Shown here piece by piece: positions 3,027-41,746 of a stretch of DNA of 64,000 nucleotides. The DNA comes from Polyangiaceae bacterium (GTDB lineage: Bacteria > Myxococcota_A > Polyangia > Polyangiales > Polyangiaceae). Within the stretch, counting starts at the first letter, position 1. Every line of letters starts with the position of its first letter. The translations under genes and the position numbers were made by a program. The notes below the pieces were generated by a model that was not told where the DNA came from, made no database searches, and saw only the letters and a list, made by a program, of their open reading frames with translations. The DNA is taken from positions 32,001 to 96,000 of the forward strand of contig JBNKBE010000021.1 in assembly GCA_050287085.1 (NCBI GenBank), written 5' to 3'.

Positions 3027-4163
3027 CTAGGCCGTGGCGCAGCTTGAACGGCTCGCAAGGGCTTCGAGTCTGGCCTCGTGAGTACGTCCCAAGCCCGCGA
3101 GCAACGTCGAGACGACTTCGTGGAACTCAGGACGACCTTGCAGGGCGGCGCGGGCCCGCTCTAGCGCGGCTAGCGCAGTTCGCGGATGGTCCAATGCTGC
3201 GGCTTGGCGGGCGAACTCCAGCGCGACCTCGGGCTCCCCAGGGGCCTGCAACTGAGCTCCAGCCCAATGGGCGTAGGCCGCGTCAGGGTCGACCGTCTCC
3301 AGGCATAGCGCCAGGGTGCAACGAACGTCGATGGAGCGCGGGAAATCTCGCGACGCCTCATCGCATAGGGCATGTGCGGCAGACAGCTCCCCGTTCAGGA
3401 GGGCGAGCTGTGCAAGTAGGCTAGACGCTCTTGGATGGCGGTGGTGCTTGTCGAGCAGTGCAAGCAGGAGGCCAGCGGCGCGGGTAGCGTTGCCCTCTCC
3501 AATCGCTCGCTCCGCGGCCAGAATCTCTTCTTCGTCCTGGGATTGGGGCGGCTGCTGGTCGCCGCGGACTGCCTCGACGATGGCGCACCCTGCGGGGCTC
3601 TGAACGCTGCGCTGCAAAGCGAAGCCCGCTCCTTCAATCAGGTACGCCAATTCGTCGGCAGTTCGACTTCGGACAATGGGAGGTAGCAGCGGCTGCCCAA
3701 GGATCTGGGGTTCCACCACGACGAGCAACGTCCCAGGCCTGACGTGTCGAAACAGGCTGTCCAGGAGTTTTCTTGGAATCAGCTGAAAGCTGAGGACGTC
3801 GACCAGGGTGACGACGGTTGGCTCGAAGGCTCTTGCCGCTTCCAGCGGAGAGGCTACGACATTCAGTTCTGGATACCACACGCTGGTCACCTGGCGGGCC
3901 TCGGCCTCCGCTTCGATGCCGAGAGCCGGGCAGTGCTCCGCCAGCAGCGCAAGGCCCTCACCTGAGCCGCAGCCGACATCCCAAACACGGTCTGCCGGAG
4001 TCAAGCGCTTGGCGATCGCCCGATAGTACGCGAGGTTCGAAGGCGCAAGTCCGCTCAGATGCGGATCCCGTCGGCCACGGGTGCGGCGTAGAGGCACGAT
4101 CGCAGAGCCGTGGTGGAGCGTCGTCTCCCCGTTGATGGCAGTGTGATATCGCGGACGGGTCAT
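3027..4163 (-). CDS. Class I SAM-dependent methyltransferase with C-terminal TPR-like repeats
   Basis: VWDVGCGSGEG motif I; helical Ala/Leu-rich TPR-like C-terminal half; ATG 8 nt after the fliS stop. Confidence 0.75.
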   Translation of the reverse strand: MTRPRYHTAINGETTLHHGSAIVPLRRTRGRRDPHLSGLAPSNLAYYRAIAKRLTPADRVWDVGCGSGEGLALLAEHCPALGIEAEAEARQVTSVWYPELNVVASPLEAARAFEPTVVTLVDVLSFQLIPRKLLDSLFRHVRPGTLLVVVEPQILGQPLLPPIVRSRTADELAYLIEGAGFALQRSVQSPAGCAIVEAVRGDQQPPQSQDEEEILAAERAIGEGNATRAAGLLLALLDKHHRHPRASSLLAQLALLNGELSAAHALCDEASRDFPRSIDVRCTLALCLETVDPDAAYAHWAGAQLQAPGEPEVALEFARQAAALDHPRTALAALERARAALQGRPEFHEVVSTLLAGLGRTHEARLEALASRSSCATA

Positions 4164-4171
4164 CGACTCAT

Positions 4172-4573
4172 TCAGGCAGACGGTGGTTTGGAGGCCTCGA
4201 TCACCGCTTGTGGAACGGCTTGAGCCCAAGCTTCGCGCAGGGGTGTTAGGACGCGGATCACCTCTTCGATATAGGCGGCGTTCGCGTCGCGATTGGCTTC
4301 AGTAAGCCGTGTCATGGCAAAGTCGTAGACGCTGGCCAAGTTGGCGCATAGATCCGGATTTACCTTGTAGTCTAGAGCCAGGTACAACTCGGATACGACG
4401 GCGTGGGCTTTACATATTAGCTCTCGTCCGCGAGGCTTCTGGTTGTTTTCCAGGCATAGTCGGGCGCCATTGAGGAAACGAAAGAGACCGTCGTAAAGGG
4501 CAAGCAGGAGCTCGCCCGGTGTGAGGGTGTTCTGCTGGACCTGTTTGTAGCGCTGGACTGCGTTGGGGAGCAT
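4172..4573 (-). CDS. fliS: Flagellin export chaperone FliS
   Basis: YKQVQQNTLTPGELLLALYDG, NLASVYDF and LREAW motifs; follows fliD. Confidence 0.93.
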   Translation of the reverse strand: MLPNAVQRYKQVQQNTLTPGELLLALYDGLFRFLNGARLCLENNQKPRGRELICKAHAVVSELYLALDYKVNPDLCANLASVYDFAMTRLTEANRDANAAYIEEVIRVLTPLREAWAQAVPQAVIEASKPPSA

Positions 4574-4628
4574 GGTTCTTGGTTCGAACTAGTTCGCAAA
4601 TGAAGCGCGGGACGATGTGATGTCGTTC

Positions 4629-5984
4629 TCAGCGGGTGAGATAGGACAATTGGGAGTTGTAGGCAGCGACGGTTCCGTCCATTTCGGTGAAGGTCTTGCG
4701 CAAGCGTTCTTCGAGCCGTGTGAGGCGATCTTCCTCGCGCGTTAGTTGGTCGCCAAGCGAACTCGCTCGGCTATCAAGGCCGTCCTTGCGAACACTGAGG
4801 ATGCCCGTGTCGGGTGCGTTCAGCGACTTTGCGATGTCTCGAATGAGGTCCATGATGCCGTCGGCGTCATCACCTCCGGCCAGCACTCTAGGTACCGCAT
4901 TCGGATCGGTTGCCAAGGCGTCGTCCAGCTTGGTCCTGTCCAGCTTCAACGTGCCGTTGTTGTTGAGCTGAACACCCAGCGAGGCGAGGGTGTTGAAGCG
5001 ATCGCCGCCGAATGTGGCCGTCAACTTGCGACTGAGCTGATTGGTAATGCCTCGGAGCGTTGCGTCGCCGGTAAGAAACGGGTTGGTGCCCGCCTTCTCA
5101 CCGAATCCGGCCAGCGTATGAACCTTGTCGATGACGCCGTTGTAGGCCTTCACAAACGCATCCAGCTTGTCTCCCATTGCGGAAGAGTCGTTCTCGATGC
5201 TGACTTGAAAGGAGTCGCTTGTCTCCTTTAGAAGATTGAGTGTTACGCCGGAAATGGCGCTGGTGATCTTGTTGGTGGCACTCGTGACCTCGATGCCGTC
5301 GATCTCGACCAAGGCATTCTGCGCGGAGTGTACGATATTCGCTTGCTCGTTGAGACCGAGGGTGAGTCCGTTCTGGTCTACCGTCAGCTTGTTGTCTGCG
5401 CCGACGTCGAGTCCACGAAGCTGAATTCGGTACTGCTCGCCGTCGAAGAAGGACGAAGCCTGAACTCGTAGCCCGCTGTCATTGATCTTGCCAATGATGC
5501 TGCCAAGCGTGTCTTCGGGGTTGATCTCGATGGCGGCGGTAGCCGCTCCAACGAGGATATTGCCCTCAGGATCCTGCAGGTCCCCGGTGCCGATCTGCAA
5601 CGTTAGGGTACCGTTTTGCCCCAGCGCGCCGTTGGCACTGTCGAAGGCTTGAGAATAGCGGCGCTCGGCGCGCGCCAGCTGCGCGACGCGCACGTCGTAG
5701 CTGCCAGCCTGCGCACCTCCCGCGGCGGTTATCGTCAGTGAGTCTTCGTTGGCAGATGTGGCCTTGAAGCTACCTACTTTGGCTTCAGTGTCGAGGGCGC
5801 CTGCGGCCTTCTCGAGATCGGCCAGCAGGGTGCCCACCTCCGACAGTGACGTAACAGCGGCCCGCGCGGACGCCTGGCGGCTCTGCAGACGACTCAGAGG
5901 CTGGCGTGCTACGCCAACGAGGCCCTGGATGAGCCCCTCAACGTCCATTCCTGAACCGATTCCTCCAAATGTGACTGCGGGCAT
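4629..5984 (-). CDS. fliD: Flagellar filament cap FliD
   Basis: N-terminal FGGIGSGMDVEGLI, AQNALVEIDG, FVKAYN, C-terminal FTEMD...NSQLSYL. Confidence 0.95.
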   Translation of the reverse strand: MPAVTFGGIGSGMDVEGLIQGLVGVARQPLSRLQSRQASARAAVTSLSEVGTLLADLEKAAGALDTEAKVGSFKATSANEDSLTITAAGGAQAGSYDVRVAQLARAERRYSQAFDSANGALGQNGTLTLQIGTGDLQDPEGNILVGAATAAIEINPEDTLGSIIGKINDSGLRVQASSFFDGEQYRIQLRGLDVGADNKLTVDQNGLTLGLNEQANIVHSAQNALVEIDGIEVTSATNKITSAISGVTLNLLKETSDSFQVSIENDSSAMGDKLDAFVKAYNGVIDKVHTLAGFGEKAGTNPFLTGDATLRGITNQLSRKLTATFGGDRFNTLASLGVQLNNNGTLKLDRTKLDDALATDPNAVPRVLAGGDDADGIMDLIRDIAKSLNAPDTGILSVRKDGLDSRASSLGDQLTREEDRLTRLEERLRKTFTEMDGTVAAYNSQLSYLTR

Positions 5985-6129: not shown

Positions 6130-6957
6130 CTACTGAAGCAGGCTGGCTGCGAGTTGCGGAAGTTGGTTTGCTTGCGTCAAAATTGAGACACCTGCTTGCG
6201 TCAAAACCTGATTGCGGGACATGGCGGCCGTTTCATCGGCAACGTCCACATCGCGAATCCGAGAGTTCGCAGCGGACATGCTAAGGCGCATGGTTTGGAT
6301 GTTGCTCGAGGCGACTTCGAGTCGGTTCATCACCGCGCCAAAGTTGGAACGGGTGGTAGACACCTTCATAATGGCATCGTCGATTACGGAAAGCGCTCCC
6401 AAGGCATTGTCGCTGGTAGCGCCGTCTACGGCCACAGTGCTGACGACCGTCGCTAGGTCGAGGTCGCCGAAATCGACGGTGATTTGATCGGAGGGGTCGT
6501 CGTTGAGCCCGACCTGGAATGTGATACTCGACTGATCGGTGTTGATCAGCTCTTTCCCGTTGAACTTGGCGGAGTTCTGAATTCGAGTGATCTCTTCTTG
6601 GAGAAGTCCGAACTCGGTCTGAACGAAGGAGCGATCTTGCTCGGTGAAACTCCCATTGGCGGCCTGCATGGCCAGCTCTCGCATACGCCCCAGTACTCCG
6701 TGGACTTCTGACAAGGCGCCTTCTGCCGTCTGCGCCATGGATATGGCGTCCGCTGCGTTGCGCTCGGCAACGGAATAGGACCGAATCTGTGACTTCAGGC
6801 CTTCGCTGATGGCAAGTCCAGCTGCATCGTCTGCAGCGGAGTTGATGCGGAAGCCACTTGATAGCTTGTCGAAACTCTTACTGAGCGCTGCCTGGTTTAC
6901 GTGCAGGTTCTTCTGGGCCTGCATGGATGGGATGTTGGTCTGTACGTTCAGTGCCAT
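6130..6957 (-). CDS. fliC: Flagellin 1 (275 aa, no large outer domain)
   Basis: LSSGFRINSAADDAAGLAISE, RMRELAMQAANG, SRIRDVDVA, QANQLPQ; likely start MALNVQTN after SD GGAG. Confidence 0.97.
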   Translation of the reverse strand: MALNVQTNIPSMQAQKNLHVNQAALSKSFDKLSSGFRINSAADDAAGLAISEGLKSQIRSYSVAERNAADAISMAQTAEGALSEVHGVLGRMRELAMQAANGSFTEQDRSFVQTEFGLLQEEITRIQNSAKFNGKELINTDQSSITFQVGLNDDPSDQITVDFGDLDLATVVSTVAVDGATSDNALGALSVIDDAIMKVSTTRSNFGAVMNRLEVASSNIQTMRLSMSAANSRIRDVDVADETAAMSRNQVLTQAGVSILTQANQLPQLAASLLQ

Positions 6958-7153: not shown

Positions 7154-7981
7154 CTAGCCGAGGAGGCCAAAAGCGAGCTGTGGCAGCTGGTTGGACTGCG
7201 CCAGAACGGAGATGCCGGCTTGCGTCAGCACTTGATTGCGTGACAATGAGGCGGTCTCTTCCGCAACGTCAACGTCGCGGATGCGGGAGTTTGCGGCCGA
7301 GAGGTTGAGACGCATGGTCTGGATGTTGCTCGATGCAACTTCCAGTCGGTTCATGACCGCCCCGAACTTAGAGCGGGCCGTCGATACGTCCGAGATGGCG
7401 GTATCGATCGCATCCAGCGAACTCAGCGCATTGGTCGCTTCCGCTCCACCGACCTCGATGGTGTCGGTGACACCGCTCAGGTCTACGCCGCCCAATTCGA
7501 TTTCAATCTGATCGTTTGCATCGTTGTTGAGACCCACTTGCAACGTCAGCGTCTCGGCGTCGGTGGCCACCAGCGAGCGATTGTTGAACTTGGCAGAGCC
7601 CTGAATGCGCGATATCTCCGACTGAAGCGACGAAAATTCTGTCTGAAGAAACCCTCTGTCCGTCTCGTTGAGACTGCCGTTTGCGGACTGGACTGCAAGC
7701 TCGCGCATGCGCCCTAGAATATCGTGCACTTCGCCGAGCGCACCTTCCGCTGTTTGCGCCATTGAGATGCCGTCCGACGCGTTGCGTTCCGCCACCGAAA
7801 ATGAACGGATCTGGGACTTCATGCTTTCGCTGATGGCGAGTCCCGCCGCGTCGTCGGCGGCCGTGTTGATGCGATAGCCGCTGGAGAGCTTGTTGAAGCT
7901 CTTCATCAGCCTTGCTTGGCTGGAGCCCAGGTTCTTCTGAGCTTCCATCGAAGCAGTGTTGGTTCTAATGAATAGCGCCAT
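7154..7981 (-). CDS. fliC: Flagellin 2 (275 aa)
   Basis: LSSGYRINTAADDAAGLAISE, RMRELAVQSANG, SRIRDVDVA; likely start MALFIRTN. Confidence 0.97.
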   Translation of the reverse strand: MALFIRTNTASMEAQKNLGSSQARLMKSFNKLSSGYRINTAADDAAGLAISESMKSQIRSFSVAERNASDGISMAQTAEGALGEVHDILGRMRELAVQSANGSLNETDRGFLQTEFSSLQSEISRIQGSAKFNNRSLVATDAETLTLQVGLNNDANDQIEIELGGVDLSGVTDTIEVGGAEATNALSSLDAIDTAISDVSTARSKFGAVMNRLEVASSNIQTMRLNLSAANSRIRDVDVAEETASLSRNQVLTQAGISVLAQSNQLPQLAFGLLG

Positions 7982-8395: not shown

Positions 8396-9226
8396 TCATT
8401 GCAGCAGGTTGAGGGCCAGCTGAGGCAGTTGGTTGGACTGCGACAACACGCTCACACCGGCTTGCGATAGTACTTGGTTGCGCGCCAGCATTGCGGTTTC
8501 CTCGGCCACGTCCACGTCGCGTATGCGGGAGTTCGCTGCGGCCAGGTTCAGGCGCATCGTAGCGATCGAGGAGGTGGTGATCTCGAGCCGGTTCATCGCA
8601 GCACCGTACTTGGCTCGCTCGGTCGAGAGCACCTGCATCGAGGCGTCGATGACATCCAACGCCGCGAGGGCTGCGTCAGTGTTGTCTCCGGCGACGGTGT
8701 TTGCGTCGTCGAGGACGGCAGTTAAACCAAAGCCGCCGAAAGTGACTTGTAGTTGGTCCGACGAGGTGTTGTATAGGCCGACCTGGAAGGTGATCGTTTC
8801 GACGATTGAGTCCAGCAGCTCTTTGCCATTGAAGCGCGCGGAGCCCTGAATGCGAGCAACTTCTTGCTTGAGGGCCTGATACTCGGTGTCTAGATACCCG
8901 CGGTCGATTTCGGTCAAGCTACCGTTCGCTCCTTGCATCGCCAGCTCTCGCATGCGGCCCATGATCGACTGCACTTCGCTCAGGGCGCCTTCTGCCGTCT
9001 GCACCATACTGATTGCGTCATTCGCGTTTCTCTCGGCCACCGTGTAGGAGCGAATCTGGGTCATCATGCTTTCGCTGATGGCAAGTCCCGCCGCGTCGTC
9101 GGCAGCGGTATTGATGCGGAACCCGCTCGATAGTCGATTGAAGCTCTTCTGGAGTGACTGGTTGGCTTTGGTGAGGTTCTTCTGAGCCTCTAAGGAGGGC
9201 AGATTGGTGCGAATCAGCAGCGGCAT
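8396..9226 (-). CDS. fliC: Flagellin 3 (276 aa)
   Basis: LSSGFRINTAADDAAGLAISE, SRIRDVDVA; start MPLLIRTN overlaps the maf 3' end by 13 nt. Confidence 0.96.
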   Translation of the reverse strand: MPLLIRTNLPSLEAQKNLTKANQSLQKSFNRLSSGFRINTAADDAAGLAISESMMTQIRSYTVAERNANDAISMVQTAEGALSEVQSIMGRMRELAMQGANGSLTEIDRGYLDTEYQALKQEVARIQGSARFNGKELLDSIVETITFQVGLYNTSSDQLQVTFGGFGLTAVLDDANTVAGDNTDAALAALDVIDASMQVLSTERAKYGAAMNRLEITTSSIATMRLNLAAANSRIRDVDVAEETAMLARNQVLSQAGVSVLSQSNQLPQLALNLLQ

Positions 9227-11127
9227 GTTGAAATCCCTTTCGTTGGGCCGTTTGTTGGGTTGAGCCCTCCAACGAACTGTTGGAGTAGACTCTCGAGCTC
9301 TAGCGCGGAGTGATTGAGTGTCGAAGCAAGCGCTGTGCCGAGACGAAGTGTTTGGTCGGGGCCTCTCGGACCGGCGTCTTGCGACCCAAGCAGGGTGCAG
9401 ACGGCTCCTTGAACCCACGCGTCGAGTAGCGGCGTGTTGTGAACAGCTTTGCGCAGCTGAGCATCCGCTGTGTCGAGTCGTTCGAAGGTTTCCGGAAGAG
9501 TCTTCGGATCGAGGAGCGTGCTCAGCGCATTCTCGGAATAGGTCGTGAATTCCTGGGCACGGGTCCGACTGGTCTTCAGACGAAGAATCTGTGTCTCGGC
9601 CCACGTCGCCAGCTGCTCGGTGGTCAGCGTGTTACCACGGAGGGTCGCGGCTGCATTGATATCATCCGGGGTCAAGGCGCGCTCGGGCAGCGTCAGGAGC
9701 AGGTCACGGAGCGGGACGTCCTCGAAGCCCGGTACGTGGGCGCCGCCTTCGGTGGCATTGACGAGGCGTGGTGAGTCGGAGCGACCCCGAAGTTCCGCGG
9801 CTGCGTCAGAAAACCAGCGGTGCACAGCGCTAAGGCTGACGCCACTGGCGACGCGCGGTCCTTGCCCCCAGCCGGGAAGCCAGTGAAGGGGTTCGGCTAC
9901 TTGGCGCCGGCCGAATTGGGTGCCGTGGGCTTCGATCAGTCGCTCGCTCCAGGCAAATGACAAGGCCTGACCGTCGTCGTCAATGGCTGCAGTTGATTGT
10001 TCGTAGCCAGTGCCGGTTGCGTAGGCACGTCCGTTTGGATACGACATGTCCTGCCCAACCAGGACAATGGGATCGCAGCCGAGCAGCAACGCGGTCGAGA
10101 ATGCGGCGCTGCTCACGCTTCCGGCGACTGTAAGCCCCGGGTGACCCGTGAGCTGCTGGAGCGGGCTTGCAAGCTGCCAGAGGCCCTCGAAGAAGGGCAA
10201 TAGGGGGCCGCTACCAACACGTAGATTGTTGGGGTGAGAGGAAAGACTGAGCACGCGAACCGCCGAGTCGAGCAGCGGGTTGTCTTTGAGCGTATCTGAT
10301 AGGTCGATAGACTCGAGACAGCAGAGCATCTGCGCCTGCACGCCAGCGTGCGCCAGGGCGGCAGCTGACGAGTTTGCGCAGATGACGATTCCTTTCTGCG
10401 TCGCGATGGCTAGCTCACGTACGTTCTTGTCCAAGGAAGGGCCCGCTCCGACGATGAACGCAGGCGTCTTCGAAAAGGCCCCTTGGAGAGACTGAAGCAG
10501 TGGGCGCTGAGTCAAGAGGTCCAAGTTTCTGACAATATGCTCGACCCAGGCGCGGCCGCGCATGCTGATGGTAGACTGTGAGGCGGTGTTGCGCTGAACC
10601 AGTCGATTGATCTCTTCCCGAACTCGAATGGCGGCGTCGGGAAAGGCTGCCTCGTAGCCAGCGGTGACCAGGAGCCGCGCCGATACCGCGTTCGGTACCA
10701 GTTGGTGCCAGGCCGTCAGTAGCTCCTCATAGTTGCCGACGAGCCGGGTGCGGCCGAGCGCTAGCGGGGCTGATGACAAGGCGACGCGTGCGAGCCCAGG
10801 GCAGGGGTCATACACGATGCAGGGGGCGTCGCTGAAGTGGCGGAGCGCCAATACCGTATGGCCAAGCCCAAGCCCAAATACGACCGCGACCTCGTCGCTG
10901 CGAAGCTGTCCGATCTGTTCTTCGAGTGCCAAGGGGCTTGGACCCCGCCCAAGCTCACAACCGTCCCGGAGAAGTACGACGTCTTGCTCATCACTCGTGA
11001 GGAGGGTGCCCTCCGATTGGGCTGCCAGTATCTCGCTCGCATACTGTGGGGCAAGCTCGAGGGTCTCTAGGTTCTCTGCGAGCAGCTCGTCTGGCGAGAC
11101 GTATAGTTCCAGGGGGGCACGGATCAC
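9214..11127 (-). CDS. maf: Motility-associated factor (Maf/DUF115) flagellin glycosyltransferase
   Basis: VVFGLGLGH, AFIVGAGPSLDKN, LLGCDPIVLVGQDMSY and VNATEGGAH motifs; adjacent to the flagellins. Confidence 0.85.
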   Translation of the reverse strand: MIRAPLELYVSPDELLAENLETLELAPQYASEILAAQSEGTLLTSDEQDVVLLRDGCELGRGPSPLALEEQIGQLRSDEVAVVFGLGLGHTVLALRHFSDAPCIVYDPCPGLARVALSSAPLALGRTRLVGNYEELLTAWHQLVPNAVSARLLVTAGYEAAFPDAAIRVREEINRLVQRNTASQSTISMRGRAWVEHIVRNLDLLTQRPLLQSLQGAFSKTPAFIVGAGPSLDKNVRELAIATQKGIVICANSSAAALAHAGVQAQMLCCLESIDLSDTLKDNPLLDSAVRVLSLSSHPNNLRVGSGPLLPFFEGLWQLASPLQQLTGHPGLTVAGSVSSAAFSTALLLGCDPIVLVGQDMSYPNGRAYATGTGYEQSTAAIDDDGQALSFAWSERLIEAHGTQFGRRQVAEPLHWLPGWGQGPRVASGVSLSAVHRWFSDAAAELRGRSDSPRLVNATEGGAHVPGFEDVPLRDLLLTLPERALTPDDINAAATLRGNTLTTEQLATWAETQILRLKTSRTRAQEFTTYSENALSTLLDPKTLPETFERLDTADAQLRKAVHNTPLLDAWVQGAVCTLLGSQDAGPRGPDQTLRLGTALASTLNHSALELESLLQQFVGGLNPTNGPTKGISTCRC

Positions 11128-11507
11128 CCAGCCTCCCTACCGCCCGTAGGCGTGTCATCCGCGGTCGCATCGCGGGCGGGGCGCCGGCGGATGATGTCTG
11201 GACCGTTTTGCTTTTGACGGGCATCGCCGCCAGACAGTTGACGAGCGGCAAGGGGGGCGGGCGCTGCCGCGGGCACGTCTCCTGCGTTGGTCAGCTGCGG
11301 ATCGAGGTCGAGGAGGCCGTCGAGGTTCTCCAACGCATCACGGTTGGCCGATTCTATGCTGTCGTGAACTTCGCCGCGCAACACGGAATAGCCCCGCGGA
11401 GCGCTGATTCCGAGTTTGACGCTGCTTCGGTGCAGCTCCGTGACAACAAGCTCGATCTCGTCGCCAATCGTAATCCGCTGTCCCTTGCGTCTGGAGATAA
11501 CTAGCAT
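11124..11507 (-). CDS. csrA: Carbon storage regulator CsrA with a long C-terminal extension
   Basis: MLVISRRKGQRITIGDEIELVV...VKLGISAPRGYSVLRGEV. Confidence 0.92.
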   Translation of the reverse strand: MLVISRRKGQRITIGDEIELVVTELHRSSVKLGISAPRGYSVLRGEVHDSIESANRDALENLDGLLDLDPQLTNAGDVPAAAPAPLAARQLSGGDARQKQNGPDIIRRRPARDATADDTPTGGREAG

Positions 11508-21388: not shown

Positions 21389-21404
21389 TGGCACGGCGCG
21401 TGCT
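21389..21404 (+). promoter_or_regulatory. sigma54 promoter of the flgB operon
   Basis: TGGCACGGCGCGTGCT. Confidence 0.75.
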
Positions 21405-21815: not shown

Positions 21816-21821
21816 TGTCTG

Positions 21822-22581: not shown

Positions 22582-22592
22582 GGCAGCAGACT

Positions 22593-27303: not shown

Positions 27304-27349
27304 CCTCTGGAGCGGCGCTCCTTACAAGCACTAACCCCGCAACTCTCCC

Positions 27350-28404: not shown

Positions 28405-28414
28405 TGGAGCAGTT

Positions 28415-29104: not shown

Positions 29105-29125
29105 GGATCGAGTCAGGAGGACTCT

Positions 29126-31972: not shown

Positions 31973-32343
31973 GTGAGGAAGAGCAAGAAGCACAAGGGAC
32001 TGAAACAAGAGGTTTGGACTCCGGCTTCGAGGCAGCTGAGCTCGCTCCTGCGCCCCTTGTGTTCAAGGAAGGCGATAGCCTCGGCTTTGTGATGGACGTT
32101 CCGGTGCGTCTCACGGTCGAGATTGGCCGGAAGGCGATGCGCATTGGGGAGCTATTGAAGTTGGGCCCGGGGGCGATTCTTGAGCTCAACAAGGCCAATG
32201 GAGATCCCCTGGAGGTTTACGCCAATGACCGCTTGGTGGCACGCGGGGAGGCGGTTGTGGTGGGCGAACGATACGGGGTGCGGCTGACCGAGGTCTTGGT
32301 CAACGAAGAGGCTCAGCGAGACGAAATCGAGGAATTGATATGA
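31969..32343 (+). CDS. fliN: Motor switch protein FliN
   Basis: DVPVRLTVEIGR, ARGEAVVVGERYGVRLTE. Confidence 0.95.
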   Translation: MSEEEQEAQGTETRGLDSGFEAAELAPAPLVFKEGDSLGFVMDVPVRLTVEIGRKAMRIGELLKLGPGAILELNKANGDPLEVYANDRLVARGEAVVVGERYGVRLTEVLVNEEAQRDEIEELI

Positions 32344-33023: not shown

Positions 33024-33026
33024 CTC

Positions 33027-33689
33027 GTGCTCGAGACGACAACGCAGCTGCTGGAAGGGCAGAGTCTTGCCAATTCGCTCAAGATTCTACTCGTTCTCAC
33101 GCTGTTGTCGCTGCTTCCGGCGATCGTGTTGACGATGACCTCGTTCGTCCGGACCGTGGTGGTGCTTTCGTTCTTGCGTCAGGGTGTGGGTTCGCCCCAG
33201 ACGCCTCCGACTCAAGTCGTGGTTGGGTTGGCTCTGTTCCTAACGCTGTTCGTCATGTCGCCCGTGCTCGATCGCATGAATGAGGCTGGGCTCAAGCCGT
33301 ATCTGGCCGGTGATGTCACCGAGATGGTCGCGATGGAGCGCGCGATGGTGCCGCTCCGGGAGTTCATGCTGAGCCAGACGCGTCAGAGCGACCTTCTGCT
33401 GTTCTACTCTGCAACCGACGCTGAGCTGCCCGCGTCGCCGGAGGACGTCTCATTCCGTCTGGCGCTTCCAGCTTTTGTGGTGTCGGAACTGACAACGGCT
33501 TTTCAGATGGGCGTGATCGTCCTGCTCCCATTTTTGGTCGTGGATCTGGCTGTGGCATCGCTGCTGATGAGCATGGGTATGATGATGGTGCCCCCAACGA
33601 CTTTGAGCTTGCCGATCAAGCTCTTGCTCTTCGTGTTGGTGGACGGTTGGCACCTCGTGTGCGGGTCGCTACTCAAGAGCTACGCATGA
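33027..33689 (+). CDS. fliP: Export gate FliP
   Basis: MTSFVR, QTPP, PAFVVSEL, MGMMMVPP, LPIKLLLFVLVDGW. Confidence 0.96.
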   Translation: MLETTTQLLEGQSLANSLKILLVLTLLSLLPAIVLTMTSFVRTVVVLSFLRQGVGSPQTPPTQVVVGLALFLTLFVMSPVLDRMNEAGLKPYLAGDVTEMVAMERAMVPLREFMLSQTRQSDLLLFYSATDAELPASPEDVSFRLALPAFVVSELTTAFQMGVIVLLPFLVVDLAVASLLMSMGMMMVPPTTLSLPIKLLLFVLVDGWHLVCGSLLKSYA

Positions 33690-33698
33690 GGAAATGCG

Positions 33699-33968
33699 AT
33701 GACAACTGATGGTGCAATAGAGTTGTTGCTTGGGGTGATTGTCGCGTGGCTCAAGATGGCTGGCCCGATGCTGATCGCCGCGCTCCTGGTGGGCGTCTTG
33801 GTGGGCGTCTTGCAGGCCGCCACGCAGATCAACGAGGCGAGCATTAGCTTTCTGACCAAGCTATTTGCCGTTGGATTGGTCATCGTCGCGCTGGGTTCAT
33901 GGTCGGCACGCCAGTTGGTGGAGTACACGACGCGCACGATCAGCTCGATTTCGAACGTGGTGCAGTGA
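33699..33968 (+). CDS. fliQ: Export gate FliQ
   Basis: LQAATQINEASISFLTK. Confidence 0.93.
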   Translation: MTTDGAIELLLGVIVAWLKMAGPMLIAALLVGVLVGVLQAATQINEASISFLTKLFAVGLVIVALGSWSARQLVEYTTRTISSISNVVQ

Positions 33969-34736
33969 ATGTCCGAGCTACTCGCCGAGCTCAGCCGATA
34001 TCTGTTGGAGGTGACGCGCCTGAGCGGCGTGTTGGTGGTCGGAACGGCTCCTTTTGAGGGGGCGCCGAGGCAGGCGAAAGTGGGGCTTGTGTTGTTGCTT
34101 GGACTTGTGGCCCACGGCAGTGGCTCCGGCGGCCTAGCACCTATTCACCCCTTGGGCATCGTACCGCTGCTGGTTTCCGAGTTTCTGATAGGGGTCTTGA
34201 TGGGGCTTGTCGTTCGCATGGCGGTAGCCGTGGCTGAGGTAGCGGGCACCACCTTGGCCCCGATGATCGGCTTTGGCGCAGCTCAAGTGTTCGACCCAGG
34301 CACGGGGCAACAAGACTCGGTCCTGACGCGTGTGTACCGACTGTTTGCGGGGTTGGTCGCGGTCTCGGTGGGGTTGCATCGGGTGTTACTCGCGGCGGTG
34401 CTGGAGGGATTCGAGCGCTTGCCGGTGGGGGCCGCCTCACACCTAGAAGCGTCTGCCCAGGGGTTGCTGATCCTCAGCAGCGGTGTGATTTCGGGAGGGT
34501 TGTTGCTGGCTCTACCGGCGCTAGCCGCCCTGCTGATGGTGCAACTAGCCCTCGCCTTTGTCGCCCGCGCGGCGCCCGCGATGCAGATCTTCAACATTGG
34601 CTTCACTATCTTCTTGGGCACGGGCGGTGTCTTGCTGTGGCTAACGCTCCCGGATACGGGGCGCGCGTTGGCTCGCCAGTTCTCTCATGTGGGCGCGCAG
34701 TTGGAAGCTGTCCTTCTGGCGGTGGTACAAGGCTAA
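33969..34736 (+). CDS. fliR: Export gate FliR
   Basis: EFLIG, GFGAAQVFDP, ARAAPAMQIFNIGF. Confidence 0.93.
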   Translation: MSELLAELSRYLLEVTRLSGVLVVGTAPFEGAPRQAKVGLVLLLGLVAHGSGSGGLAPIHPLGIVPLLVSEFLIGVLMGLVVRMAVAVAEVAGTTLAPMIGFGAAQVFDPGTGQQDSVLTRVYRLFAGLVAVSVGLHRVLLAAVLEGFERLPVGAASHLEASAQGLLILSSGVISGGLLLALPALAALLMVQLALAFVARAAPAMQIFNIGFTIFLGTGGVLLWLTLPDTGRALARQFSHVGAQLEAVLLAVVQG

Positions 34737-34827
34737 GGCACAGCGATGAGCCGGCCCGCCACGGCAAGAGGAGCGGCCGGCGTAGTATGACTTTCCCTCC
34801 GCGGGCCCCTAGTCCCTCGGTGCTCAG

Positions 34828-35889
34828 ATGGCAGACGACCAAGAGAAGACAGAGGAGGCGACCCCAGAGCGTCGCAAGAAGGCACGGGACGAAGGGCAGT
34901 TTCCTCGAGGCAAGGATGCGGGCAATACCGCCGGCTCGATCATGGTCCTGCTGACTGTCGTGGCGTTCGGAGATTTCTTCAGGGCCGAGATTGGAAGCTT
35001 TGCCTGGCTCTGCTTTCACGAATCAGACTTTCTGATCCGAGGCAATATCTCGGACTTGCTAGGGCACCTGGTGCGCGTGCTCTTCTTCGTCATCGCTCCG
35101 CTGTCGCTTGCCGCCGCGCTTGGAGCCTTTGCGGTGGGTGTCGCGGAAGCCGGGTTCCACCCAAACATGGACCTCATTGCTCCCAAGTGGAGCCGCTTGG
35201 ACCCGCTCTCCAAACTCAAGCAGATGTTCTCGCCGCAGCAAGCGACGGTCAATGTGGCACTCCAGTTGGGACGGGTGGTTGCCGTCGCCGCAGTCGCTTG
35301 GTTTTCCGTGGCTGGCTCGCTGCCCGAGCTACTGAGTCTCTCCCGGACCGGCATCCGCGGCGCTGCCTTGCAGCTGGCCACAAGTCTACTCAAGTTGGCT
35401 CTCTGGGCATCGCTTGCGCTTGTCGTCTTGGTCGCAGTCGACTTCCTATACAACCGTTTCAAGCACGAAAAGCAGATTCGGATGAGCAAGCAGGAGGTCA
35501 AAGACGAGTACAAGAATCAGGAGGGCGATCCCAGGGTGAAGGCGCGCCAGCGCGCGAAGGCACGCGAGATGGCCAAGCGAAGCATTCTCCAGGCGGTTCA
35601 GTCTGCGGACTTCGTGATCGCCAACCCGACTCACGTGTCGGTGGCCATCCGCTATCGTCCGGAAGAAGGCGCGCCGGTCGTTGTGGCCAAGGGGTTCGAC
35701 CAAGTCGCACTGCACATTCGACAACTGGCGGAGCGTTTCGAGGTTCCGGTGATCGAGAACGTGCCCTTGGCGCGCGCGCTCGCCCGCCAAGTCAAAGTGG
35801 GGCGTCAGATCCCTGTCGATCTCTACGCGGCGGTCGCCGAGGTATTGGCGCTCGTCTATCGACTGAAGAATCGTTCGCTCATGGCATAG
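34828..35889 (+). CDS. flhB: Export switch protein FlhB
   Basis: KTEEATPERRKKARDEG, EGDP, NPTH autocleavage site. Confidence 0.96.
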   Translation: MADDQEKTEEATPERRKKARDEGQFPRGKDAGNTAGSIMVLLTVVAFGDFFRAEIGSFAWLCFHESDFLIRGNISDLLGHLVRVLFFVIAPLSLAAALGAFAVGVAEAGFHPNMDLIAPKWSRLDPLSKLKQMFSPQQATVNVALQLGRVVAVAAVAWFSVAGSLPELLSLSRTGIRGAALQLATSLLKLALWASLALVVLVAVDFLYNRFKHEKQIRMSKQEVKDEYKNQEGDPRVKARQRAKAREMAKRSILQAVQSADFVIANPTHVSVAIRYRPEEGAPVVVAKGFDQVALHIRQLAERFEVPVIENVPLARALARQVKVGRQIPVDLYAAVAEVLALVYRLKNRSLMA

Positions 35890-36023
35890 GACAAGGCTTC
35901 GTATCGGGCCGGGGCGACCGGGTCGCTGCGGAACGGTCCTTCGTCGCGATGCGGAACTTCTGCTCGTTTCGAGGCGCGCGAAAACGGGCCACGCCGGGGG
36001 AGATCGGGGCCCGCTTCTCAGCG

Positions 36024-36039
36024 TGGCACGGTTGGTGCT
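36024..36039 (+). promoter_or_regulatory. sigma54 promoter of flhA-flhF-fliA-flgF
   Basis: TGGCACGGTTGGTGCT. Confidence 0.7.
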
Positions 36040-36126
36040 TCTTCATTGCCCGAGCTGGGCGGACCCGCGTGAGCCAACCTCAAAGCGTTGTCGCTCGCAG
36101 CTCGAGCTAGGAAGAACGGAGCCGTA

Positions 36127-38211
36127 GTGACGACACATGCCGCTGTCAGCAGTGAGGCCAAAGCCTACTCGGACCTAGCGGTTCCTCTTGGCATCGTGGG
36201 GATCGTCATGATGATGGTCCTGCCGCTACCGGCGGTGCTCGTCGATCTGCTCCTTGCCTGCTCGCTGGCGGTAGCCATTGGGGTCTTCCTGATCGGCTTG
36301 TTCATGGACCATCCGCTCCAGTTCAGCGCGTTTCCCGCTGTAATCCTCGTGGCAACGTTGCTTCGTCTGAGCGTCAATGTGGCCACGACGCGGCTGATTC
36401 TGCTCAATGGTGCAGGGGGACAGGCCGCCGCCGGACAGGTGATCGAGACCTTTGGCCTCTTTGTCGTGGGCGGCAACGTGGTCGTCGGTTTGGTCGTCTT
36501 CCTGATCCTCGTGGTGATCAACTTCGTGGTGATCACCAAAGGCGCAGGGCGCGTCGCAGAGGTGGCGGCGCGCTTTGCTCTGGATGGAATGCCTGGCAAG
36601 CAGATGGCCATAGATGCTGACCTGAACGCTGGGATCATCAACTCCGAGCAGGCGCACGATAAGCGGCGCAACGTGGAGCGTGAGGCCGACTTCTTTGGCG
36701 CGATGGACGGCGCGAGCAAGTTCGTCAAGGGCGACGCCATCGCTGGGTTGCTCATTACCGGGATCAACTTGCTCGGTGGTTTGATGCTTGGCATCGCAGC
36801 CGGGATGGACGTCGCGGAGGCGGCGCAGGCGTTTTCGATCTTGTCCGTAGGCGACGCGCTTGTCTCTCAGATGCCGGCACTGCTGATGTCGACGGCCGCT
36901 GGCGTTGTCGTCACGCGTTCCGCCACGGGGGAACAACTTGGCCGTGCCTTGCGCTCGCAGCTGCTGGGGAGTCGACGGGCCGTCGCCTCGACAGCGGGCA
37001 TCTTGACGGTGATGGCCTTCATTCCGGGCATGCCGGCCATTCCCTTCTTGGGTTTGGCAGGGGCGCTGGGGGCGGTTGCCTACCGCGCGGGCAAACGGAG
37101 TGAGAAGGCGCGGCGGGCTCAAGATCAGGCCAAGGAGGAGGTTCCGCAGCGAGAGGAGCCCATCGAGTCGGTGTTGCCCCTGGATGTCTTGAGCCTAGAG
37201 GTCGGCTACGAGCTAATCCGAGCCGTGGATCCGTCGATGGGGGGGACCCTCGTCGAACGCATTTCCAGCCTGCGTCGTCAGATTGCTCAGGAGCTGGGCA
37301 TCGTGGTTCCCCCGGTACACATTCGCGATAATCTGCAGTTGTCACCGGGCCGCTATCGCTTCGTACTGCTGGGTACGGAGATTGCGGGGGGAACTCTGGC
37401 CGGGGGGAAGTTGCTTGCCATGGACCCAACCGGTCAGGCTCCGGCCATCGATGGCGAGGCGACGGTCGACCCGACTTTCGGGACGCCAGCGCGCTGGGTG
37501 CGCAATCAGGACCGCGAGCTCGCAGAGGCTCTTGGCTATACGGTGGTTGACCAAGCCACGATCATCGCCACGCATTTGGCGGAAGTGGTGCGCCGTCACG
37601 CAGACCAGATCCTTGGGCGCTCAGAACTCCAGGCCCTCTTCGATGTCTTTTCTCAGAGCACGCCGAAGCTGGTCGAAGATCTGGTACCAAACTTGCTCTC
37701 GTTCGGTGAGGTGCTCAAGGTGATGCGCAACTTGCTTCGAGAGGGAGTCTCCATTCGTGACCTCAGGACGCTGCTCGAGGCTTTACTGGAAGTGGCCCCG
37801 GCTACGAAGGATCCTGAGCAGCTCACGGAATTGACACGCCAGAAGCTCTATCGTCAGATCACTGCCGCCTATTCGGATTCTGACAACAGCATTGGCACCC
37901 TCATTCTCGACCCCGCGGTGGAAGAGATGTTTCGGCGCTCGTTGACTGAGATCGCTCAGGGGATCGGGGGCGCGCTCGATCCCAATCAAGCGCGGGCTTT
38001 GGGGGATTCGCTTGAGCATGCAGTGGCGAGGATGCAGGCGATGGGGTTGCCCCCCTGTCTCGTGACGAGCCCGGATTTGCGACGTTACGTGCGTGCTTTT
38101 GCGGAGCGCCGGATCCCAGCATTGGGCGTCCTTTCCTTCCGCGAAATCGATCCAACTACGACGATTCGACCGATCGAATCGGTGTCCTTTAACAGTGCAG
38201 TGGCCGCATAG
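36127..38211 (+). CDS. flhA: Export apparatus FlhA
   Basis: RVAEVAARFALDGMPGKQMAIDADL, FFGAMDGASKFVKGD; GTG start chosen. Confidence 0.97.
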   Translation: MTTHAAVSSEAKAYSDLAVPLGIVGIVMMMVLPLPAVLVDLLLACSLAVAIGVFLIGLFMDHPLQFSAFPAVILVATLLRLSVNVATTRLILLNGAGGQAAAGQVIETFGLFVVGGNVVVGLVVFLILVVINFVVITKGAGRVAEVAARFALDGMPGKQMAIDADLNAGIINSEQAHDKRRNVEREADFFGAMDGASKFVKGDAIAGLLITGINLLGGLMLGIAAGMDVAEAAQAFSILSVGDALVSQMPALLMSTAAGVVVTRSATGEQLGRALRSQLLGSRRAVASTAGILTVMAFIPGMPAIPFLGLAGALGAVAYRAGKRSEKARRAQDQAKEEVPQREEPIESVLPLDVLSLEVGYELIRAVDPSMGGTLVERISSLRRQIAQELGIVVPPVHIRDNLQLSPGRYRFVLLGTEIAGGTLAGGKLLAMDPTGQAPAIDGEATVDPTFGTPARWVRNQDRELAEALGYTVVDQATIIATHLAEVVRRHADQILGRSELQALFDVFSQSTPKLVEDLVPNLLSFGEVLKVMRNLLREGVSIRDLRTLLEALLEVAPATKDPEQLTELTRQKLYRQITAAYSDSDNSIGTLILDPAVEEMFRRSLTEIAQGIGGALDPNQARALGDSLEHAVARMQAMGLPPCLVTSPDLRRYVRAFAERRIPALGVLSFREIDPTTTIRPIESVSFNSAVAA

Positions 38212-38222: not shown

Positions 38223-39290
38223 GTGACGGTGGAATACCAGACGTTTCGGGGTGCTGATGTCAAAGAAGCTCTATTCGCTGTTCGGCAGGCATTGGGCGCA
38301 GATGCGATGATCGAGTCGACGCGACACCTCACGAATGGACAGAGCGGTGCACTGGGACATTCGGTCGTCGAGATCGTTGCTGCGCCTGCCACGGCGGGGC
38401 GTCCGCGTATGGGCGAAAGGCTGGGGGCACGGGGCGTAGGTCGAGTCAACGCCGCGCGGATTGAACGTGAACTGCTGGCCTTGCGGGCGATGGTCGACGA
38501 ACTCAGCGCAAGCCGTCCGCCTCGCGATCGCATTCGCGCGGTGCTCAATGCGGCGGGCTTCGAGGGAGACCTGGCCAAGAGTCTCGCTGCCGGCGCAACA
38601 AGACCCGCCAAAGATGGTCGAGCGGCTCTCGTGGAGTACCTGCGCTCTCGTGTGGGCGAAAGATTGCTATGTCAGCCGCGGCTGATCGAGAGGAACTTTC
38701 GGCAGCTCATCGCCTGCGTCGGGCCGACTGGCGTGGGCAAGACAACCACCTTGGCCAAGCTTGCCGCGCGCGCGCGACTGGAGCTTCAGCGCAGTGTTAC
38801 CGTGGTGAGCTTGGATACGTTCCGTGTTGGGGCTGTGGAGCAGTGGCAGCGCTACGCTGAGTTGATTGGCGTCCAGTTCTATGTGGCTGAAGACGCTGCA
38901 ACATTTTCTCGCATCGTCGAGTCCTCACCCAGCGACATCATCTTGGTCGACTCTGCGGGTCAGGCTGCCCATGAAGACGCGTCCATGTTGCGACTCGGCA
39001 GCTGTCTGCAATCCGTCAAGAATATCCGCACGGAGGTTCAGCTGGTTCTTCCGGCTTGGATCCGAGCGCGAGACGCCGAACGGATAGCGGCCGCCTATGT
39101 CCGACCTCATCTTACCGGTCTGATTGTGACCAAGCTGGACGAGGCGGAACAGGTGGGTGGCTCGATTCATGCAGCCTTAGCCGGACAGCTTCCCGTGACG
39201 TACCTATGTGACGGGGCGCGCGTCCCCGAGGACATTCGCGACGCGGCGCGGGAGTCCGTCCTAAACGCACTCTTTCCGGAGCAAACTTGA
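38223..39290 (+). CDS. flhF: SRP-family GTPase FlhF
   Basis: VRQALGADAMI, GPTGVGKTTTLAKLAA, DTFRVGAVEQ, TKLDE, VPEDI. Confidence 0.93.
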   Translation: MTVEYQTFRGADVKEALFAVRQALGADAMIESTRHLTNGQSGALGHSVVEIVAAPATAGRPRMGERLGARGVGRVNAARIERELLALRAMVDELSASRPPRDRIRAVLNAAGFEGDLAKSLAAGATRPAKDGRAALVEYLRSRVGERLLCQPRLIERNFRQLIACVGPTGVGKTTTLAKLAARARLELQRSVTVVSLDTFRVGAVEQWQRYAELIGVQFYVAEDAATFSRIVESSPSDIILVDSAGQAAHEDASMLRLGSCLQSVKNIRTEVQLVLPAWIRARDAERIAAAYVRPHLTGLIVTKLDEAEQVGGSIHAALAGQLPVTYLCDGARVPEDIRDAARESVLNALFPEQT

Positions 39291-40092
39291 GCGTGGAAGA
39301 ACAGTCAGCCATTCAACGGACTGCCGGTCGCGGGGTCACCGCCACCGCTGCCGTCAGGGCGCGTGTCGATCCGGGCCAACGCGAGGTATACGAGCGCTAT
39401 CTCCCCATCGTGCGCCGCATCGCCATGCGTACCGTCCGCTCCTTGCCCCCTTCGGTCACGATCGACGACGTCATTTCCGCAGGATGGCTCGGCATGGTCG
39501 AAGCGCTCGGGCGACGTACGGAAGAGATGACGGACGAGCACTTCGAGGCGTTTGCGTCCTATCGGGTACGCGGGGCGATACTCGACCATCTGCGCATGCT
39601 CGATCCCATGAGCCGCAAGCTGCGGGGTGCCTCTCGCAAGATCACCCAGGTGGTCAACGAACTCATTGGTCGTCTCGGTCGTAGCCCGGAGCAAGACGAA
39701 GTGGCTAGCGAGCTCGGCATGGAGCTCGGCGACTATCAGCGGCTTCTGGGTGAGATCAGCGAAGCCGGCTTTGCCCGACTGGAGCTTTCGGAGATCGGGG
39801 AGCCATCGGCGGGTGACGCGTCCCCGAAGCGCTGGCCACTCGGAGCGAGTTGGTGGGCAGCATTGCCGACGCGATCGACGCGTTGCCCGAACGACTGAAC
39901 ACCATCGTTGGTCTGTATTATCAAGAAGAGTGCAGCTTTCGAGAGATCGGTGAGGTTCTGGGAGTGACCGAGTCCAGGGTCTGCCAGTTGCACGCGGAGG
40001 CGATGCATTTGATTCGAGCTACCGTGGAGGGACGGCCGATCACCACCGCTAAGCGCCGCGGTTCACGCGCGCAGCGGAGTCCCGTCAAGTGA
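39287..40092 (+). pseudogene. fliA: sigma28 FliA split by a one-base frameshift (true lesion or assembly error)
   Basis: Regions 2-3 (FASYRVRGAILDHLR) in ORF 39287-39898; region 4 (SFREIGEVLGVTESRVCQLH) in the -1 frame; one extra C at 39822-39825 restores a single ORF. Confidence 0.85.
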
Positions 40093-40826
40093 GCACAGGC
40101 ATCTGGGTCGCGGCGTCTGGCGCCACCTCCCAGCTGACCGCGTTGGATGTCGCCGCTAACAATACGGCCAACGCGACTACCGCTGGCTACAAGGGCGAGG
40201 ACGCGATCTTTCAGGAGTACCTGATCGATGCCGCACGGGCTGGCAATCAGGTATCCGCGATGCGCTACAACGGTGTTGCGGAGGTTCGCAGCGACCATGC
40301 GACAGGGCCCATCCAGGTCACGGACCGCGGGTTGGATGTTGCGATTCGGGGCGAGGGGTTCTTTGCGGTTCAGACCCAAAACGGGGAGCGCTATACGCGA
40401 GCTGGTGCGTTTTCAGTGTCGCCGTCTGGCAATCTCGTTGCCGCCGATGGTGCGCTCGTCTTGAATACCGCGCGCCGTCCGATCCGAGTGAACGGCAATG
40501 CCAATGAGGCACGGATCACCGAAGGGGGAACGTTGATGGTGGGTGGAGAGCCTGCCGGCCAGTTGCGCCTGGTCCGCTTCGCAGACCAAGCTAGACTCGA
40601 GAAGGAAGGCAATACCCTATTTCGCGCGACGCCCACTTCGGGCGCTGCACAACAGGGCCCGATCACGCTCGAGACCGGTGCCTTGGAGATGGCAAATATC
40701 TCAGTCGTCAAGAGCATGACGGACATAGTGTCGACGACCCGAACATTTGACGCTCTCGAGCGCGCCATTGACGTGTTTCGGGACGCAGACACCCGCGCTG
40801 CCAACGACCTAATGCGTCGTCGCTAG
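40089..40826 (+). CDS. flgF: Rod protein FlgF
   Basis: AANNTANATTAGYK, LDVAIRGEGFF, YTRAG, LEMANIS. Confidence 0.88.
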   Translation: MSTGIWVAASGATSQLTALDVAANNTANATTAGYKGEDAIFQEYLIDAARAGNQVSAMRYNGVAEVRSDHATGPIQVTDRGLDVAIRGEGFFAVQTQNGERYTRAGAFSVSPSGNLVAADGALVLNTARRPIRVNGNANEARITEGGTLMVGGEPAGQLRLVRFADQARLEKEGNTLFRATPTSGAAQQGPITLETGALEMANISVVKSMTDIVSTTRTFDALERAIDVFRDADTRAANDLMRRR

Positions 40827-40902
40827 TGAATTGCCACGTCGAGAGATGAAAATGCCGCGGGAATTAGTGCTTTGCTGGTTTTGGGTCCCAATATGGAAAC
40901 GA

Positions 40903-40918
40903 TGGCATGAATGATGCA
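40903..40918 (+). promoter_or_regulatory. sigma54 promoter upstream of the long fliW leader
   Basis: TGGCATGAATGATGCA (GG-N10-GC). Confidence 0.6.
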
Positions 40919-41269
40919 CCGGAGTATTGGTGGGCCCCATGTTGTTCTCGGCGGTATCGGCTGCAAGCAAATGACGAGAGATCGGCGAGAAACGAGCGAA
41001 CCATCAATGGGCAAAGCGTTCAAACCTGTAGCTAGACGCGGCCGCGAGTGCTGCTCGCTGCCGGAGGGTTTAGGAAGAGTAGATTGCGCAGAATCGGCGG
41101 GGCCGGTTTCAAAGGAAAAAGAGAGTCGATCAACGGACGTCGATGGAGCAGCGTTGGGGTGGCTCCCACCCCGAGCGGAGACACGGTGCTGCGGCATTTT
41201 GGAGATCGGTTCTAAGGAGTACTGATGCGACGGCTGGATTGAGCCGTTGCATTCAGAGGAGCTAGAAAG

Positions 41270-41746
41270 ATGAGGATCGAGACAAGTCGTTTTGGTGTGA
41301 TCGAGGCGGCCCCCGAGGAGCTGATCGAGTTTTCGCGCGGGATCGTGGGCTTCCCCCACGACAAGCAGTACGTGCTCATTCCCCATGCGACGTCTTCGAT
41401 TGTCGCCTGGCTTCAGTCCGCGAAGACGCCGAGTCTGGCGTTTCCGGTGGTCTCTGCACACGGGTTGGTCGAAGAATACCCCGACGTAGACCTGGCACCC
41501 CTGGCTCGCCGAGCCGATCTCGGAGAGCGCTTCGACGACCTTGCCATTCTGGCTGTTCTCTCCGCGCCTCGGAATCAACCGGCCACGGTCAACCTAATGG
41601 CGCCGATTGTTGTCAACGCACACACGCGTCAGGGCGCTCAGATATTTCTTGAGGGGTCGCGATATTCCACGCGCGAGCTATTCGTGATCCCACCACGTCC
41701 CGACGAGAACGGTGGGGACAAGCCGCTAGAGGCTCGCGTCGGATAG
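41270..41746 (+). CDS. fliW: Flagellar assembly factor FliW (CsrA antagonist)
   Basis: IETSRFG, FSRGIVGF, WLQS, TVNLMAPIVVN. Confidence 0.92.
   Translation: MRIETSRFGVIEAAPEELIEFSRGIVGFPHDKQYVLIPHATSSIVAWLQSAKTPSLAFPVVSAHGLVEEYPDVDLAPLARRADLGERFDDLAILAVLSAPRNQPATVNLMAPIVVNAHTRQGAQIFLEGSRYSTRELFVIPPRPDENGGDKPLEARVG

Follow-up and report, generated by a model that had tools for sequence, protein, structure and literature searches.

Myxobacteria are the standard example of bacteria that move without flagella. Among the closest described systems is that of Anaeromyxobacter, in which a flagellar cluster and swimming were reported in 2008 and an ancestral origin, with loss in most myxobacteria, was proposed (PMC2330069). 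Flagellar assembly genes have been noted in uncultured Myxococcota (bioRxiv 2021.07.06.451402), flagellum genes are expressed across metagenome-assembled genomes (MAGs) of the Bdellovibrionota and Myxococcota, the two groups not being separated (PMC11937823), and the Myxococcota have been called a motile phylum (bioRxiv 2026.06.16.732483). This analysis concerns a flagellar gene cluster at positions 3027-41746 of a 64,000-nucleotide stretch of DNA (the window, G000:C21:32001-96000) from the 6.2 Mb assembly of a Polyangiaceae bacterium (the host, G000). The first-pass annotation of the window, made from its letters alone, presented such a system in a myxobacterium as a surprise; this was overstated, as the Anaeromyxobacter cluster and swimming had been published and FlhA is common in uncultured Myxococcota.

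The reading preferred here, with a probability of about 0.6, is that the cluster encodes an intact, inherited rotary flagellum that would serve dispersal in an uncultured member of the Polyangiaceae, and that this family has lost both FlhG and the N-terminal EIDAL peptide of FliM. An inherited rotary flagellum is favoured because stator genes co-occur with flagellar genes, the FlhA tree follows that of RpoB, and the proteins are conserved despite saturated synonymous sites. Judged from sequence, the flagellum is likely to be a functional rotary machine and, if it is, chemotactic switching is probably non-canonical or absent. Flagella in the Myxococcota are already partly known; the family variant without EIDAL and FlhG is the new part.

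Inheritance of the flagellar genes and the rotary motor

The myxobacterial host expected by the first-pass annotation was borne out, the assembly being Polyangiaceae-like by FlhA and RpoB similarity. Among the listed matches from named genomes, the closest FlhAs (63-80 % identity) are mostly labelled Polyangiaceae. RpoB is 80-81 % identical to that of two Polyangiaceae-labelled MAGs, 77 % to that of a Myxococcales-labelled MAG and 59-61 % to that of another deltaproteobacterium, with no match in one of the five genomes; family kin range from 70 to 89 % and other families of the order from 70 to 75 %. These similarities would place the host in the Polyangiaceae (Myxococcota). No 16S rRNA gene was found in the assembly.

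At E<=1e-100, FlhA was found in 147 of 300 family genomes (one of them, G287, flagged unpublished), representing 42 of 75 genera, and in 11 of 17 genomes of the host genus. In a phylum sample, 163 of 401 genomes score above the curated FlhA cut-off; at E<=1e-100 the same sample gives 230 matches, those beyond the 163 being SctV-like or partial. The sampled genomes are incomplete, and related genomes do not count as independent observations. FlgI is present in 23 of 36 family kin, and the best 120 FlgI homologues carry only metagenome or MAG names, with no cultured Polyangiaceae among them. Flagellar genes in Polyangiaceae MAGs have already been annotated by NCBI. The single locus is not exceptional, and the flagellar system is not rare in the family.

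Comparing FlhA with the species tree had been proposed as a check by the first-pass annotation; trees of FlhA and RpoB were compared for 62 FlhA-positive genomes chosen to span genera and families. FlhA follows RpoB: path distances in the two trees correlate with a rho of 0.86, whereas 999 permutations reached 0.28 at most, and 18 of the 31 FlhA splits with support of at least 0.95 are also found in the RpoB tree. The host gene falls inside its own genus and family and nests within the Myxococcota, and a quick IQ-TREE analysis sets the 28 FlhAs of the family apart from the others by a branch with a Shimodaira-Hasegawa-like approximate likelihood ratio (SH-aLRT) of 100. For two genomes, G011 (L155) and G016 (L156), FlhA groups away from its own genus, unlike RpoB; this suggests that their flagellar cluster may have been replaced within the family.

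Selection was assessed against a relative, G017. For 30 cluster genes, the proportion of synonymous differences (pS) is 0.66-0.83, which is saturated, so that no ratios of nonsynonymous to synonymous divergence (dN/dS) are given; dN is 0.14-0.53, and the comparison genes GlnA and GreB have dN of 0.16 and 0.35. The conservation of the proteins across saturated synonymous divergence shows that the cluster genes have been under old, long-term purifying selection. The proposal of a maintained appendage with a swimming or dispersal stage holds for its maintenance; the swimming stage is a prediction.

The stator genes motA and motB lie at G000:C21:22740-24478, 10.5 kb upstream of the cluster and just outside the window, and had not been seen in the first pass. 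The best match of MotA is the PomA model NF006527 (277.7 bits, below the cut-off of 341). Its alignment with Vibrio PomA (8bri) is free of gaps, and R88, E96, T158, T185 and T186 are conserved, which we take to be residues for torque and for the PomA-type sodium signature; T158, T185 and T186 were checked in the host only. Because of this gap-free alignment and the residues kept, sodium coupling is suggested, and seems a reasonably probable property of the stator. MotB keeps the transmembrane aspartate, and its transmembrane helix is PomB-like by the criterion used. The host has genes for a C ring of FliG, FliM and FliN and for a MotAB-type stator with conserved charged residues.

Stator and flagellar genes go together across the family. 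Of 105 MotA-positive genomes, 104 are also FlhA-positive; among the 43 FlhA-positive genomes below the MotA threshold, the 21 tested all have a MotB plug, compared with none of 19 FlhA-negative genomes. An adhesion, sensing or secretion filament, one of the options offered earlier, is unsupported as the main interpretation, since stator genes accompany flagellar genes in the tested genomes. At least two stator types occur among flagellated members of the family, one PomA-like (57-74 % identical to the host) and one distant (29-36 %), mixed within genera. The host also has a second, divergent MotA/MotB pair (G000:C26:38777-41975; L104:8777-11975), followed 3′ by a 611 aa membrane protein with a FliG-like (MgtE_N) match; this operon contains unassigned exported proteins and no flagellar genes.

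Polyangiaceae flagellar genes without EIDAL and FlhG

EIDAL, a peptide at the N-terminus of FliM, is known from other bacteria to bind phosphorylated CheY (CheY-P) and FlhG, and its mutation or deletion leads to straight swimming with few reversals and to extra flagella (bioRxiv 2022.04.21.489128; PMC5677366). The genes flhF and flhG are consistently encoded together (PMC12826062). In the host, fliM (31082-31972, forward strand) lacks the peptide and has intact middle and SPOA domains; the protein starts just past the canonical position of the peptide, no upstream frame encodes it, and the second assembly described below shows no indel there. No EIDAL-like motif was found upstream of FliN. A model of host FliM (pLDDT 87) confirms the protein by its fold, with FliM in the C ring of Salmonella as a match (E 3e-14). 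Around flhA, 61 regions were fetched from the phylum, of which 44 contain FliM. An EIDAL-like motif is missing from all 21 family FliMs and present in 20 of the 23 from other Myxococcota, the three exceptions being two genomes from family f35 and a third whose motif is degenerate.

The same family lacks FlhG. The host flhF (38223-39290, forward), with its GTPase motifs, is followed directly by fliA, and in 27 of 27 family regions flhF is kept and abuts fliA, leaving no room for flhG. FlhG was found in 25 of 34 non-family regions (17 of these built the profile), including all eight from sister families of the order. When a sister-family FlhG was used as the query, it matched one of 301 family genomes and all 25 FlhGs in the other Myxococcota regions. 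The single family match (G216) is on a contig other than that of its flhA and beside a FliA of a different type, and is probably foreign or contaminant DNA. No region of 45 has FlhG without EIDAL. Two sister-family genomes, G041 and G500, keep EIDAL and FlhG and have no detectable CheA, which fits a peptide that tracks FlhG. In both f35 regions flhF again abuts fliA; L204 (G478) and L205 (G556) have no flhG beside flhF and no EIDAL, a co-loss that is apparently independent of that in the Polyangiaceae. The first-pass annotation had called the appendage atypical. The word holds for a different reason, the family-wide loss of EIDAL and FlhG, which it had not seen.

No description of Polyangiaceae flagella or of joint EIDAL and FlhG loss was found in a literature search, although supplements may list such genomes. 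There is no mention of 'myxo' or 'Polyangi' in the main text of bioRxiv 2024.12.05.626484 or of PMC13277936. A family-wide flagellar design with FlhF only and without EIDAL appears to be new to the literature.

If the flagellum is built as predicted, the sigma54 activator would drive the basal-body operons, FliA would drive flgM and the filament genes, and Maf would modify the short flagellins. With no high-affinity CheY-P site on the motor, switching would be rare or absent. Loss of the FlhG brake with retention of FlhF may leave cells with several flagella, which would serve dispersal by swimming or swarming in addition to type IV pili. A wider and more tentative proposal, somewhat short of an even chance, is that about half of Polyangiaceae species have a flagellated life stage and that EIDAL and FlhG were jointly lost at the origin of the family, giving a non-chemotactic, FlhF-only, multi-flagellated swimmer, with the loss in f35 seemingly independent.

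The best-surviving alternative is an ordinary chemotactic flagellum, in which the motor would still be switched by CheY-P from the Aer2-type or another che cluster, acting on FliN, FliG or the middle domain of FliM, while a different ATPase would do the work of FlhG and the loss of the peptide would have little effect. It is unlikely. A chemotaxis cluster does exist on host contig C2, encoding CheA, CheW, an Aer2-like methyl-accepting chemotaxis protein (MCP), CheR and CheB with CheD and a CheY-like gene; the fold of the FliM middle domain is kept; CheA lies 19-41 kb from FlhA in some family genomes (G079, G070, G091); and MinD can take over flagellar regulation in Escherichia coli (PMC12826062). 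However, the flagellar cluster itself has no che genes, close orthologues of the C2 Aer2-type cluster are present, judged by its CheA, in only two of 27 flagellated family genomes, no CheA was detected at E<=1e-40 in G023, which is flagellated, and EIDAL-like strings occur in only three of 30,749 host open reading frames (ORFs), none of them in a flagellar locus. The Aer2-type cluster (G000:C2:184140-194027; L147), with close orthologues in only two of 61 tested genomes, was probably acquired separately.

Several points weigh against a non-chemotactic, inherited flagellum without FlhG. Two che clusters (on C2 and C3) are present in the host, together with three MCPs and one or more CheY-like proteins, and weak binding of CheY to FliN or to the middle domain of FliM is conceivable. 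The best FlhG-like protein of the host, a MinD-like fusion protein whose Walker A motif is degenerate (C5:71671-73245, 102 bits), could substitute for FlhG. In 17 of the 61 regions FliM lies beyond the fetched stretch, and the co-loss of EIDAL and FlhG represents only two independent events, in the Polyangiaceae and in f35. The gene set is patchy; six of the 17 genomes of the host genus and 153 of the 300 from the family have no FlhA, so the flagellar set has often been lost. Of the 31 FlhA splits with good support, seven disagree with RpoB, every one within the family, therefore some replacement of FlhA occurred. Likewise, the PomA-like MotA type of the host accounts for only 28 of 105 family MotAs, therefore stators have been exchanged within the family. 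Finally, saturated synonymous divergence cannot show recent relaxation in the host lineage, should it have taken place.

Organization and integrity of the cluster

The 69 ORFs of the window were scanned against Pfam and NCBIfam. Between 3027 and 41746 there are 44 genes in two divergent arms, 41 of them flagellar, and the system of about 40 genes first reported is real. The scans identified the export gate and ATPase set (fliOPQR, flhAB, fliHIJ); the C, MS, P and L rings, rod, hook, junction, cap and three flagellins; and the regulators, namely a sigma54 activator, FliA, FlgM, CsrA/FliW and FlhF. FlgN, FliK and FlgA matched only below curated cut-offs. FlhA scores 826.8 bits against TIGR01398 (cut-off 772.1), the SctV model falling below its own cut-off, and FlhF scores 172 bits against TIGR03499 (cut-off 174.15) and matches PF00448, the GTPase domain of the signal recognition particle type being present. 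No Rfam family was found in the window.

The reverse-strand arm ends with the filament operon, the last gene of which (3027-4163) encodes a methyltransferase-TPR protein, also found beside fliS in G017, G004 and G011 and possibly involved in flagellin modification. It is one of three non-flagellar genes in the cluster. Next are fliS and fliD (4172-5984), three short flagellins of 275-276 aa (6130-6957, 7154-7981 and 8396-9226), a Maf/PseD-like flagellin glycosylation protein (9214-11127; PF01973 and NF050051, both partial), csrA, encoding the FliW partner (11124-11507), and flgL and flgK (11734-14003; TIGR02550 and TIGR02492 above cut-off). A fourth flagellin gene, not mentioned in the first pass, is located elsewhere in the assembly (G000:C1:258874-259695). 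The flgN-like gene and flgM (14347-14979) have a sigma28-like site near 15075, the only one detected; by the patterns used, there is none 5′ of the flagellins. A second FliA-like sigma factor is encoded at G000:C31:16864 (41 % identity over 73 aa). The arm continues with flgJ (rod-cap domain only), flgI, flgH (16633-17391), a flgA-like gene and flgG (15126-18967).

The other two non-flagellar genes follow, also on the reverse strand and with no family match: the Cys-rich lipoprotein (19039-19242) already pointed out within the cluster, and a 202 aa exported protein (19245-19853). The pair is located between flgG and the sigma54 activator in the host, G017 and G004, and was not found in G011. 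The activator, a sigma54 enhancer-binding protein with no sensor domain matched (19865-20974, reverse), is divergent from flgB and may have a FleQ/FlrA-like role.

On the forward strand, a sigma54-type -24/-12 site (21389-21404) precedes flgB; it is present in all four same-genus genomes examined, using a pattern that hits 4.7 % of random 400-base windows. A sigma54 site 5′ of flhA is found in the host only (one of 27 family regions) and is not counted as conserved. The genes flgB, flgC, fliE, fliF, fliG, fliH, fliI, fliJ, fliK, flgD and flgE (21417-30424) are followed by fliL (30467-30976), fliM, the run of fliN, fliO, fliP, fliQ, fliR, flhB and flhA (31969-38211), flhF, fliA (39287-40092), and flgF and fliW (40089-41746).

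All genes but fliA had been described as intact. No frame break appeared in any of the 41 flagellar genes when they were aligned to G017; 40 aligned in a single piece, and FliM in two pieces on either side of a stretch of N in G017, which agrees with that description. In contrast, the broken fliA did not survive comparison with a second assembly. In the deposited sequence the fliA frame shifts near 39822, where a Logan contig of run X1 has one extra base at a depth of 14.1 of 14.1, with no other differences over 15,966 bases; the resulting frame encodes a full 268 aa FliA (sigma28) including region 4. Run X1 may be the source run, so that its contig is a second assembly and not a second sample. 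The simplest reading is that the frameshift is an assembly error. In runs X2 and X3 the organism was not present.

The X1 contig spans from inside fliI past greB, joining the cluster to greB and a short-chain dehydrogenase/reductase (SDR) gene, and G017 has the same gene order, flanks included (muramidase, motAB, glnA, cluster, greB). The contig does not look chimeric, the possibility that had been raised for checking. Just 5′ of motAB (G000:C21:18889-22641; L103:4889-8641) are genes for an HDOD protein, a FlgJ-like muramidase (glucosaminidase) and NeuB; the glucosaminidase is split from the rod-cap FlgJ, and several other genera have it within the flagellar cluster. A tandem XRE helix-turn-helix regulator (2422-2976, forward), located between glnA and the cluster, is 75 % identical to its counterpart at the corresponding place in G017.

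Outside the flagellar system, the TIGR04563-like flank marker reported earlier is confirmed at 63155-63310 (forward; 112 bits against a cut-off of 65) as a myxobacterial small protein and host marker. Male-sterility and AMP-binding domains were identified in a 1414 aa ORF (51478-55722); its elbD label is presumed, the domains alone having been checked. In the host genome, three PilT matches and one TIGR04565 match are above cut-off, and the gliding marker GltJ gave sub-cut-off matches only.

A possible relic or secretion apparatus, and known flagellar systems

Two further explanations are both very improbable. In the first, the cluster would be a silent or decaying relic, with intact genes rarely or never expressed and lost piecemeal. 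This would suit the patchy presence of the system within genera, the split or broken flgI in kin G005, G009 and G026, reviews in which myxobacteria are described as lacking flagella (PMC6060248), and the report that swimming is 'not commonly observed' in Anaeromyxobacter 2CP-C (PMC2330069). It is hard to reconcile with proteins conserved across saturated synonymous divergence, a sigma54 site kept in four of four genomes, a sole lesion that is absent from the second assembly, and FlhA kept in 42 of 75 genera.

In the second, the structure would be a non-swimming appendage for adhesion, surface sensing or secretion, with the stator used for mechanosensing and not for propulsion. Loss of the steering input would fit such an appendage, Myxococcales have repurposed type III parts (PMC3459982), and type III paralogues are scattered in the host genome. 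Nonetheless, FlgBCDEK, FliEG, FlgH and MotAB, all present here, are absent from the published non-flagellar type III secretion systems (NF-T3SS) of the Myxococcales, and the host retains the hook, junction and cap, four flagellins, the torque residues and the stators. A binning artefact or recent horizontal acquisition can be set aside: the tetranucleotide distance of the cluster (0.076) exceeds the genome median (0.060), yet 16 % of 135 chunks are more distant, and GC content at third codon positions is slightly below that of flanking genes, while the X1 contig across the cluster and right flank, the order shared with G017 from motAB and glnA to greB, the placement of FlhA in its own genus and family, and an assembly 96.8 % complete with 0.85 % contamination speak against it, synteny and tree placement having largely refuted it.

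Should the prevalence of FlhA (163 of 401 Myxococcota, 147 of 300 Polyangiaceae) correspond to functional flagella, the cultured models without flagella would be derived, an idea proposed in 2008 from a single genome and now testable across the phylum. The intact, inherited flagellum preferred here would also make the family a natural experiment in FlhF action without FlhG and in control of the motor without EIDAL.

The Myxococcales NF-T3SS (PMC3459982) share the phylum of the host and export-gate homologues, and lack the rod, hook, L ring, FliG and stators; the host has every one of these. FlhA-, FlhB-, FliI-, FliN-, FliF- and FliP-like paralogues scattered in the host (C4:121563-123383, C4:315130, C5:216474-217604, C7:78803, C8:174290 and C18:8304) are a probable non-flagellar type III-like system, separate from the flagellar cluster; similar sub-cut-off FlhA matches occur in many non-flagellated family genomes.

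A close likeness is to Anaeromyxobacter dehalogenans 2CP-C, a myxobacterium with a near-complete flagellar set and motAB, argued to be ancestral; strain K swims (PMC2330069). It belongs to another class of the phylum, and its che genes are embedded between motAB and the fli genes, whereas the host has no che genes in the cluster and motAB 10.5 kb away. In the published account of 2CP-C, fliJ, flgN, flgA, flgJ and fliK were not found; the host has homologues of all five. The polar systems of Vibrio, Shewanella and Pseudomonas (PMC12826062; bioRxiv 2022.04.21.489128) resemble that of the host in the sigma54 activator, FliA/FlgM, FlhF, PomA-like stator and order flhB-flhA-flhF-fliA, and differ in that the host lacks flhG and EIDAL, its natural state resembling their fliM N-terminal and flhG mutants. 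The lateral flagella of Vibrio and Aeromonas have FliM without the CheY-binding N-terminus, rotate one way, and are second systems without FlhF. In the host, by comparison, the flagellum is the only one, FlhF is kept, and FlhA nests within the Myxococcota.

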